From Escherichia phage 1-6af, in the sequence record OR983333.1: a stretch of DNA of 64,000 bases; one strand, 5' to 3'. Below, in pieces: positions 61,490 through 61,590 of this stretch; the stretch's first letter is position 1; each line of letters opens with the position of its first letter. The notes under the pieces are model-generated. The model worked only from the letters and a program-made list of their open reading frames with translations. It had not been told where the DNA came from and ran no database searches. Both the position numbers and the translations under genes were made by a program.

Positions 61490-61590
61490 AGCCTCTAGCG
61501 AGGATGACAGGGTTCGAACCTGCATACTCCAATTACTTCTTTAACGACCGCTTAGAAGGCGGGGAAGATACATCCTCGCTAGAAGCTCTT
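61490..61590 (-). ncRNA. tRNA-like structured element inside an 18-bp inverted repeat
   Basis: GCAGG-TTCGAAC-CCTGT T-arm-like hairpin adjacent to CATCCTC pairing with GAGGATG; anticodon-like loop CTTCTAA; no CCA; not a canonical cloverleaf. Confidence 0.3.

Follow-up and report, generated by a model that had tools for sequence, protein, structure and literature searches.

Among the closest described relatives of the RNA considered here is the canonical phage transfer RNA (tRNA) tRNA-Arg(UCU), as encoded by phage T4 and by phiEco32 (NC_010324, positions 66354-66427). We examined a stretch of 64,000 nucleotides (nt), referred to below as the window, from Escherichia phage 1-6af (sequence record OR983333.1), a phiEco32-like podophage (Kuravirus). 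An RNA element encoded on its minus strand at 61590..61487 lies in the same Kuravirus slot as the phiEco32 tRNA gene. The element shares with canonical tRNA-Arg(UCU) an acceptor stem of 7 base pairs (bp), a purine discriminator, the anticodon loop YUUCUAA, the T arm RCAGG-UUCGAAY-CCUGU, the D-loop sequence AAUUGGA and a variable loop that starts with CG. In contrast to the canonical molecule it has no D hairpin: the strands of the D stem flank the anticodon arm, the D-loop-like segment is found between the anticodon and T arms, and about 6 nt of additional linker are present. In the window copy, CCA is also absent, and leader and trailer form a 13-bp helix. Because one defining feature, the D hairpin, fails, this rewired RNA is not an ordinary member of the cloverleaf class. 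Judging from sequence comparison, we consider that it is, on balance, probably a working tRNA-Arg that is charged and decodes with a permuted core and is excised by way of its closing helix.

Several other RNAs depart from the cloverleaf or from its usual gene organization. The tRNA-like domain of transfer-messenger RNA, the tRNA-like structures of plant viruses and the YrlA Y RNA form an L shape with an elbow of the T-loop/D-loop type without being cloverleaves, but they have no decoding anticodon arm of this kind and belong to larger RNAs with other functions. The circularly permuted tRNA genes of Cyanidioschyzon merolae encode tRNA segments in a non-standard order; their transcripts are circularised and cut again to yield an ordinary cloverleaf, whereas the family described here has normal ends and its re-ordering would persist in the mature RNA. 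RNase III stalks, which are helices of about 20 bp formed by the flanks of a stable RNA in rRNA operons and in the early mRNAs of phage T7, are similar to the closing helix of the element. Such stalks are not usual in bacterial tRNA genes, and the one in the window is known from predicted pairing and covariation. Metazoan and nematode mitochondrial tRNA-Ser(UCU/GCU) likewise have no D hairpin, and the anticodon of the element is the one found in Ascaris mitochondrial tRNA-Ser(UCU) (PMC7609411). In mitochondrial tRNAs without a D arm, however, the D elements are lost, the molecules are flexible and the T arms are often reduced (PMC7609411), whereas in the present family the D elements are re-ordered, the T arm is canonical, a loop of the G18G19 type is retained and the identity features are those of bacterial Arg rather than Ser. 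Allo-tRNAs and tRNA-Sec-like molecules of the 8/4 or 9/3 type are another case of non-canonical tRNA bodies that were found by mining genomes and metagenomes, including those of phages, and on which standard tools fail (PMC5389517). They keep the order of the arms and change the stem lengths, while the family described here keeps the 7/5 lengths and connects its strands in a different order. We found no description of such a phage tRNA in open-access papers and bioRxiv preprints, although an earlier account may exist.

Reading the minus strand from 61590 to 61487, the element begins with AAGAGCUUCUAGC (61578..61590), the leader strand of the closing helix, which pairs with 61499-61487 according to the sequence, the minimum-free-energy fold and covariation. 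It is followed by GAGGAUG (61571..61577), the 5' strand of the acceptor stem in the Rfam tRNA alignment, in the family model described below and by covariation; G61577 is the predicted mature 5' end and candidate RNase P site. The trinucleotide UAU (61568..61570) is invariant in 47/47 aligned sequences. CUUC (61564..61567) pairs with 61539-61536 as the 5' strand of what we call the core helix and is continuous with the stem of the anticodon arm CCCGC-CUUCUAA-GCGGU (61547..61563; Rfam alignment and family model), in which the anticodon UCU occupies 61556-61554 and the 7-nt loop has U33 and a purine at position 37. Beyond this arm the 7-nt linker CGUUAAA (61540..61546) separates the anticodon stem from the core helix as a bulge on one side, and it opens like C44 G45 of a variable loop. 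GAAG (61536..61539) is the 3' strand of the core helix and is compensatory with 61567-61564. It is succeeded by the D-loop-like segment UAAUUGGAGUAU (61524..61535), whose GGAGUAU is invariant and which runs directly into the T stem. The T arm GCAGG-UUCGAAC-CCUGU (61507..61523), identified in the Rfam alignment and by the family model, has a loop of the UUCRANY type and a stem that covaries. The 3' strand of the acceptor stem, CAUCCUC, and the discriminator G61499 occupy 61499..61506, and G61499 also pairs with C61578. The trailer strand of the closing helix, CUAGAGGCUCUU (61487..61498), stands at the position of CCA and reads CUA there. No D hairpin is present between position 9 and the anticodon stem; the gap between the acceptor and anticodon stems is only 7 nt (UAUCUUC).

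The acceptor stem (61577-61571/61506-61500, 7 bp) and the leader/trailer helix (61590-61578/61499-61487, 13 bp) form 20 consecutive pairs with a single G.U pair, U61584.G61493, and the minimum-free-energy fold has a 21st pair. The fold of the element has an energy of -47.3 kcal/mol (z = -5.9), and 0 of 200 shuffled sequences were as stable. In its alignment to the Rfam tRNA model (RF00005) the D arm is deleted and 20 nt are inserted in the variable region; at a permissive E-value the element matches no Rfam family except tRNA. An earlier note, made from the sequence alone, had reported a tRNA-like hairpin cluster enclosed by an inverted repeat at this place. This observation is confirmed with small corrections of coordinates and strand, because the fold is more stable than shuffled sequences and the Rfam tRNA model just passes its threshold; the match to the family model and homologues in hundreds of phage records, the latter from the search of phage genomes that the note had proposed, likewise show that the cluster is real. 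All features that it listed are present, but it had mixed the two strands, and the structure can be understood only from the minus strand, on which the flanking genes and all other genes near 61.5 kb are encoded. One half of the repeat, CATCCTCGCTAGAAGCTC, was correctly placed at 61571-61588, while the other, GAGCCTCTAGCGAGGATG, is found on the plus strand at 61489-61506 and not at 61490-61504, and the interior measures 64 nt instead of 66 nt. The 18-bp repeat with one G-U position is in fact the 20-bp composite just described, which does contain the G.U pair. The hairpins that were called T-arm-like and anticodon-like are the T arm (61523-61507) and the anticodon arm with its UCU (61563-61547), and the lack of an encoded CCA and the location between an HNH gene upstream and a Phage_lipoprotein gene downstream were both described correctly. 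The ARAGORN run that had been suggested returned no tRNA call in the window; standard tRNA finders miss the RNA because the pieces of the D arm are joined in a different order. We also considered that the UCU hairpin might be the D arm, with the anticodon elsewhere, and ruled this out, as no acceptable second anticodon arm exists. A promoter and terminator scan around the element identified no dedicated promoter and no terminator. The closing helix is unlike an intrinsic terminator: it closes a 64-nt multi-branch structure, after which comes CUCUUGGAGG.

We used the 121-nt element as a BLAST query against 50,697 phage records. The region as a whole is 99.8-99.9% identical to Escherichia phages 1-6bf and FH3, and full-length copies of the element that are identical or nearly identical were found in 1-6bf, FH3 and Bas93; the match in Bas94 covers 81% of the query. 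Unrelated phages gave matches of 75-82% over 61-98% of the element. These are members of Vequintavirinae (SSBI34, A73), phi92-like Justusliebigvirus, Felix O1 and its relatives, jumbo phages of about 350 kb, Klebsiella phages (Sugarland, KB57-like), T5-like ones among them, and phages of Erwinia, Serratia and Vibrio. The copy in Felix O1 (NC_005282) is located at 25948-26036, within a tRNA cluster. The phi92-like copy is flanked by tRNA-Leu and tRNA-Ser, ends in an encoded G-CCA and is preceded by the promoter-like sequence TTGACA-17-TATAGT. Four pattern scans of IMG/VR gave many further members and brought the total to 47-52 distinct sequences. Bacterial and archaeal genomes, one for each of 185,579 species, contained matches only in four contigs of metagenome-assembled genomes, and 5,426 complete E. 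coli genomes contained none; the family is essentially restricted to phages.

The architecture of the family is fixed. From the 5' end it consists of a 7-nt acceptor strand, UAU, CNNN, an anticodon stem strand of 5 nt, the loop CUUCUAA, the second stem strand of 5 nt, CRUUAAN and NNNG; the 3' part continues with UAAYUGGAGUAU, a T stem strand of 5 nt, UUCGANU, the second T stem strand of 5 nt, the 7-nt acceptor strand, N73 and, in some members, CCA. On the Rfam tRNA model the family scores 30-39 bits overall (for instance, 31.7 and 38.6 bits for two other members), and the canonical tRNAs in its neighborhood nearly all score 45-69 bits, one tRNA-Ser scoring 33. The element is unannotated in most records, and a few carry the label 'tRNA-OTHER' or 'tRNA-Undet'. 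In three loci ARAGORN calls a 94-98-nt 'tRNA-Arg(tct)' with a shifted register (L059 10443-10536, L158 4054-4149 and L179 13332-13429). In these over-long calls the acceptor stem is drawn from flanks beyond the 82-nt core, in L059 from the closing helix. Because of such miscalls the family appears in automated annotation as absent, as 'tRNA-OTHER' or as an over-long tRNA-Arg. Contig L179 (13000-13430) encodes two rewired members about 250 nt apart, one with the anticodon CCU and the other a divergent UCU form. The latter and L162 10106-10186 constitute a divergent subfamily with the linker AGAAA and a longer D-loop-like segment on the same topology.

The predicted structure was assessed on a gap-free alignment of 47 distinct members with 82 columns. 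With the acceptor, core, anticodon and T helices imposed, 94.6% of cells are standard pairs, and 18/21 pairs show changes on both sides. None of 500 shuffles matched this (0/500), and sliding of the partner strands lowered pairing to 32-47%. All pairs of the acceptor stem (7/7) and of the anticodon stem (5/5) covary, as does the T stem. The stems vary freely, and the single-stranded segments UAUC, CUUC.A, C.UUAA, GUAA and GGAGUAUG are almost invariant; in the linker, alignment positions C32, U34, U35, A36 and A37 are invariant. A covariance model built from this alignment gives members 84-102 bits and canonical tRNAs at most 36 bits. With this model the window copy scores 97.8 bits (E = 1e-25) and is the sole match in the window. 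We regard the claims on structure and family membership as firm.

The core helix played no part in choosing the members and can therefore be read directly from the alignment. It joins columns 11-14 with columns 39-42, that is, the four bases just 5' of the anticodon stem with the four bases that lie 7 nt 3' of this stem, so that a helix of 3-4 bp (CNN/NNG) encloses the anticodon arm. Its first pair, C-G, is invariant. The next two are never broken: pair 12-41 is UA in 40 members, AU in 4 and GC in 3, and pair 13-40 is CG in 41, UA in 4 and GC in 2. The variants comprise CUC/GAG, which is the majority form, CUU/AAG, CGU/ACG, CGC/GCG, CAC/GUG, CAG/CUG and CAU/AUG, and the CUUC/GAAG of the window is one compensatory variant. 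RNAalifold recovers only the three strong helices, and the core helix therefore rests on covariation and not on energy. A competing arrangement, in which the 5' CUC pairs with the GAG of UGGAGUAU around the anticodon arm and a 'variable hairpin' GUUA-N6-UAAY, was ruled out because GGAG is invariant while the 5' strand (CAG, CGU, CAC and others) covaries with the core-helix site.

The permuted core can be described by reference to canonical tRNA-Arg(UCU) of phiEco32, which reads GCGCCCU-UA-GUUC-AAUUGGACA-GAAC-A, then the anticodon arm, CGGUU and the T arm. The AAUUGGA of the D-loop-like segment is identical to the D loop of this tRNA, and UAAUUGGAGUAU would read A14 A15 U16 U17 G18 G19 A20 .. 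A21 U48. UAU would supply the equivalents of U8 and A9 and a U that we propose as position 22; CUUC at 61564..61567 would stand in for the D-stem strand 22-25, and GAAG at 61536..61539 for the strand 10-13. The family order would then be U8 A9, a strand in place of 22-25 and 26, the anticodon arm, C44 G45 and the linker of about 6 nt in the 5' half, and a strand in place of 10-13, AAUUGGA, A21, U48 and the T stem in the 3' half. In other words, segment 10-21, which comprises the 5' D-stem strand and the D loop, appears to have been transferred into the variable loop of a canonical tRNA-Arg, with the new chain junctions 9->22, 45->10 and 21->48. Crystal structures of tRNAs have established the classical contacts of the L fold, among them the triples 9-12-23, 45-10-25 and 8-14-21 and the Levitt pair 15-48. 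Each new junction thus appears to join residues that are already neighbors in the classical L core, and therefore the L shape and the determinants for arginyl-tRNA synthetase (ArgRS), A20, C35, U36 and G73, can survive. An exchange of its two strands leaves a helix nearly unchanged, and stacking of the D stem on the anticodon stem would therefore remain feasible. It seems possible that the GG also still contacts the T loop in the rearranged RNA, and this mapping could account for the invariance of exactly these unpaired bases.

If it works as a tRNA, the RNA would read AGA (and AGG) codons after being charged by host ArgRS. Scans with the anticodon left free found only Arg anticodons on the scaffold, nearly all UCU, with UCG once and CCU once. 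Among 65 genomic occurrences, for which contigs were not deduplicated, the anticodon loop is CUUCUAA in 58, CUUCUAC in 6 and UUCCUAA, with the anticodon CCU, in one; one further member has the loop CUUCGAA, with the anticodon UCG. The UCG member is located in a cluster of 20 tRNAs that already holds canonical Arg(UCU) and Arg(ACG). In L179, canonical tRNAs with ACG and CCG and rewired ones with CCU and UCU make up four non-redundant Arg anticodons. Canonical tRNA-Arg(UCU) is missing in 38 of the 41 member-bearing loci with at least five tRNAs, and members usually occupy the otherwise empty tRNA-Arg(UCU) slot of phage tRNA sets. Felix O1, for example, has 22 annotated tRNAs with ACG as the sole Arg anticodon, and the tRNA cluster of phi92 has no Arg tRNA. 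Apparent co-occurrences with canonical tRNA-Arg(UCU) in L059 and L158 were discarded, since the ARAGORN call there is the element itself. AGA and AGG are rare codons in E. coli; in the open reading frames of the window, AGA makes up 20% and AGG 10% of Arg codons, together about 30%, and ARAGORN calls no tRNA anywhere in the window.

The bacterial Arg identity set consists of A20, C35, U/G36 and A/G73, with A20 as the chief ArgRS determinant (PMC9976931). In the family C35 is invariant, position 36 is U (G once), and the GGA corresponding to G18 G19 A20 is invariant; the A after GG would sit where A20 does. Among the 52 distinct members the discriminator is G in 30, A in 18 and U in 4, a purine in 48 (92%), and it is G in the window; CCA is encoded after N73 in 33 of the 52. 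It may well be that phages of many unrelated groups, including Felix O1 and phi92, decode AGA with a non-cloverleaf 'topological isomer' of tRNA that is accepted by ArgRS, EF-Tu and the ribosome. The rewired form may be favored by escape from host or phage factors that recognize canonical tRNA-Arg(UCU) or its gene.

Members appear to end in one of two formats, an encoded CCA or a closing processing helix. For the 52 distinct members we counted how many of the 13 bases preceding position 1 pair with positions 73-85, and found a bimodal distribution: 12/52 have 10-13 of 13 pairs, and the other 40 have at most 8. CCA is encoded in 0/12 of the closing-helix members, which typically have GCUA or GCAA, and in 33/40 of the others. 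In a second alignment, of 13 closing-helix members from different phage groups, 95.9% of cells in the 13 extra pairs are paired and 10/13 pairs show changes on both sides. Because these members were picked for looking paired, the bimodality is the less biased evidence. G.U pairs occur in the helix and suggest that what is selected is the RNA read from this strand, not a repeat in the DNA. Closing-helix members belong to operons, and a ribosome-binding site and start codon often follow them closely. In the window, the Shine-Dalgarno sequence of the lipoprotein gene, GGAGG (61486-61482), comes directly after the trailer strand, and the stop codon of the HNH gene (61591-61589) overlaps the first two bases of the leader strand.

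We propose that the RNA would be co-transcribed with the HNH and lipoprotein genes and that the 20-bp duplex of acceptor stem, leader and trailer would serve as a processing stalk for cutting, most likely by RNase III. This duplex, which would stack on the T stem, has the size of an RNase III substrate. After cutting of the stalk, RNase P would trim the 5' end and exonucleases the 3' end, and the missing CCA would be supplied by the host CCA-adding enzyme.

Several observations weigh against a working, decoding tRNA with this core. The Rfam tRNA score on 61577..61499 is 29.7 bits, a bare pass of the gathering score of 29, and ARAGORN finds a tRNA neither in the window nor at 18 other members. 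The core helix is thermodynamically weak and missed by RNAalifold, which predicts acceptor, anticodon and T helices only; its support is covariation from about 13 variant sequences, and at its fourth position most members have an A.C mismatch, with C-G, A-U or U.G in seven. The anticodon stem of the window copy has a C.U mismatch as its top pair, which leaves 4 pairs where most members have 5. No CCA is encoded in the window copy, and a leader that is fully paired to a trailer is normally a poor RNase P substrate. Finally, in L028 and L166 a UCU member coexists with canonical tRNA-Arg(UCU), the only true co-occurrences with this anticodon. Because both of these members are without CCA, the CCA-less format may not always serve decoding and might at times act chiefly as a mimic or a processing signal. 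At L028 1522-1692, on a 154-kb IMG/VR contig, a closing-helix member without CCA and an intact canonical tRNA-Arg(UCU) are arranged in tandem, 8 nt apart, a genuine coexistence for which any functional model has to account.

The upstream neighbor of the element is an HNH_3 endonuclease gene (61589..62029, minus strand; Pfam PF13392 with 24.7 bits, just under the cut-off of 24.8 bits), and the downstream neighbor is the phage lipoprotein gene (61194..61475, minus strand; Pfam PF24052, E = 1.7e-36), which serves as a positional anchor. In phiEco32 the canonical tRNA-Arg(UCU) is encoded immediately upstream of the lipoprotein orthologue, at the position of the window element. The site carries two alleles in Kuraviruses, canonical tRNA-Arg(UCU) in phiEco32 and Bas91 and the rewired gene in the window, Bas93, Bas94 and TH42. 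HNH_3 genes are found 0-71 nt from members in at least six lineages (the window, L004, L023, L030, L037 and L088); in the five lineages other than the window they are mostly just downstream, as is the annotated HNH gene of Felix O1, while most members have no adjoining HNH gene. The HNH gene is missing from Bas94, which retains the RNA; homology ends precisely at the leader, whose pairing is degraded to 10/13. Bas91 has an HNH gene product 66% identical to that of the window next to its canonical tRNA-Arg, and phiEco32 has the canonical gene and no HNH. Kuraviruses thus have the HNH gene present or absent with either type of tRNA, in four combinations, and HNH presence and tRNA type assort independently. 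Both the Bas91 arrangement and these four combinations weaken the proposal that the rewired tRNA represents an allele that is immune to the HNH enzyme and linked with it. The HNH protein is probably a free-standing homing endonuclease of the kind common in phage tRNA regions and may target these conserved genes and contribute to their shuffling; the RNA does not require it, and it has no part in the mechanism of the RNA.

Downstream of the rewired RNA in TH42 (L007, MT446413), positions 1590-1625 hold the 3' third of a canonical tRNA-Arg (GAGGGUUCGAAUCCUUCCGUCCCGACCA). This remnant marks a recombination junction: the 5' part of the canonical gene has given way to the rewired one. In Felix O1, the annotated start of the HNH gene ORF45 (26003-26395) falls within the rewired tRNA, and the annotated protein has no Pfam domain; the start of this coding sequence is probably mis-set.

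The main rivals of a decoding tRNA-Arg are a non-decoding mimic and a pure processing element. A mimic would retain the anticodon arm, T arm and ArgRS-binding features of tRNA-Arg(UCU) without serving on the ribosome, and would titrate or mislead factors that recognize tRNA-Arg, such as an anticodon nuclease of a defense system, a colicin-D-like toxin or a regulator, and phage tRNAs that face tRNA-cleaving defenses are a known theme, as with the T5 tRNAs against PARIS and retron systems. A non-canonical body with a strictly conserved anticodon loop, the CCA-less format of the window and the presence of members beside intact canonical tRNA-Arg(UCU), in tandem in L028 and also in L166, are what such a decoy would lead one to expect. 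Yet members usually substitute for canonical tRNA-Arg(UCU) instead of accompanying it, their anticodons vary only inside the Arg box, in ways that supplement the canonical Arg tRNAs encoded alongside them, and most encode R73-CCA and keep the acceptor stem and A20, needless features for a pure anticodon-loop decoy; we consider the mimic unlikely, although it deserves to be taken seriously. Under the other rival, the CCA-less closing-helix format is mainly a processing or stability signal, a tRNA-like 'punctuation' that separates the HNH and lipoprotein messages, is cut by RNase III or RNase P and yields an excised RNA with no further role. The 20-bp covarying helix between two open reading frames, abutting the HNH stop codon and the lipoprotein Shine-Dalgarno sequence, would fit well, as would the ribosome-binding site and ATG directly after several members and the lack of CCA in all 12 closing-helix members; both real co-occurrences with canonical tRNA-Arg(UCU) likewise involve CCA-less members. 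A signal of this sort does not need the UCU loop, the GGA or the core helix, however, and these are equally conserved in closing-helix and CCA-encoding members; moreover, AGA and AGG account for 30% of the Arg codons in the window, which has no other tRNA. Processing is in any case compatible with a tRNA role, and as the sole function we find it improbable.

Two further explanations had been raised by the earlier note. That the element is chiefly the DNA recognition site of an HNH homing endonuclease, spread as cargo with incidental RNA structure, agrees with the closeness of HNH_3 genes to members in six lineages and directly downstream in Felix O1, with the breakpoint of HNH presence and absence at the leader when Bas94 is compared with Bas93 and the window, and with the TH42 element that abuts a 3' remnant of canonical tRNA-Arg. 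It leaves unexplained the compensatory changes in five RNA helices and the G.U pairs that form on one strand only, and it must cope with the absence of HNH beside most members and with the 66%-identical HNH beside canonical tRNA-Arg in Bas91; we hold it to be very improbable. The note had also offered a degenerate tRNA-Arg-like gene or a miniature inverted-repeat element. The likeness to tRNA-Arg is borne out by the UCU loop, T arm, acceptor stem and G discriminator, and the blank ARAGORN result, the missing D arm and CCA and the long terminal inverted repeats could suggest a decaying pseudogene or a transposable element. Decay does not agree with an odd architecture that is fixed across the family: in no fewer than 47 distinct sequences of unrelated phage groups, purifying selection has maintained it and changes have been compensatory. 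Against a transposable element, the window has one copy, no target-site duplication and no multiple copies were seen, the 5,426 E. coli genomes lack it, and the repeat sequence is lineage-specific while its pairing is conserved, with G.U pairs that work only in the minus-strand RNA. Both possibilities are already contradicted by the comparative data, and we give them hardly any credence.

If the rewired RNA is indeed charged and translated with, the arm order of the cloverleaf is not obligatory for an elongator tRNA of the bacterial type. It would represent a second wiring of the same tertiary core, which bears on tRNA folding, on recognition by synthetases and the ribosome, and on the design of orthogonal tRNAs. 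The gene is missed by standard annotation in hundreds of phage genomes, including several therapy candidates and typing phages; therefore phage tRNA sets seem to be without the AGA reader that they most often carry, and analyses that compare codons with tRNAs are biased. A covarying 13-bp leader/trailer helix is strictly linked with the lack of CCA, and this hints at a so far undescribed route for releasing a tRNA from the transcript of an operon. The HNH neighbors and the swap of canonical and rewired genes at one Kuravirus locus make a tractable system for the exchange of phage tRNA genes.

Other tRNA-like sequences were observed in the same phages. In Bas91 (L001, PQ850614), an unannotated tRNA-like sequence of about 118 nt is encoded directly after the canonical tRNA-Arg, at about 1160-1270 on the minus strand. 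It reads GGGCUAG...UCUGG-UUCGAUU-CCAGA-UAGUCC-A-CCA, and its start is also present in TH42 (L007, 1636 onward). In the window, a non-coding gap of about 650 nt between open reading frames (59743-60390, minus strand) ends in a tRNA-like RNA of about 145 nt, especially 59917-59770. Here UACAGGU (at about 59915) pairs with ACCUGUA, which is followed by A-CCA, and a canonical T arm, GUAGG-UUCGAAU-CCUAC, occupies 59798-59782; ARAGORN and Rfam make no call, and the z-score of the fold is only -2.3. This RNA is probably what the earlier note had counted as the first tRNA-like cluster. A further site, at 63438-63467 on the plus strand, surfaced through weak Rfam matches to small RNAs that contain terminators; its GGCCGCCCGAAGGCAGCC followed by UUUUAUUU resembles an intrinsic terminator on the strand opposite to the local genes.

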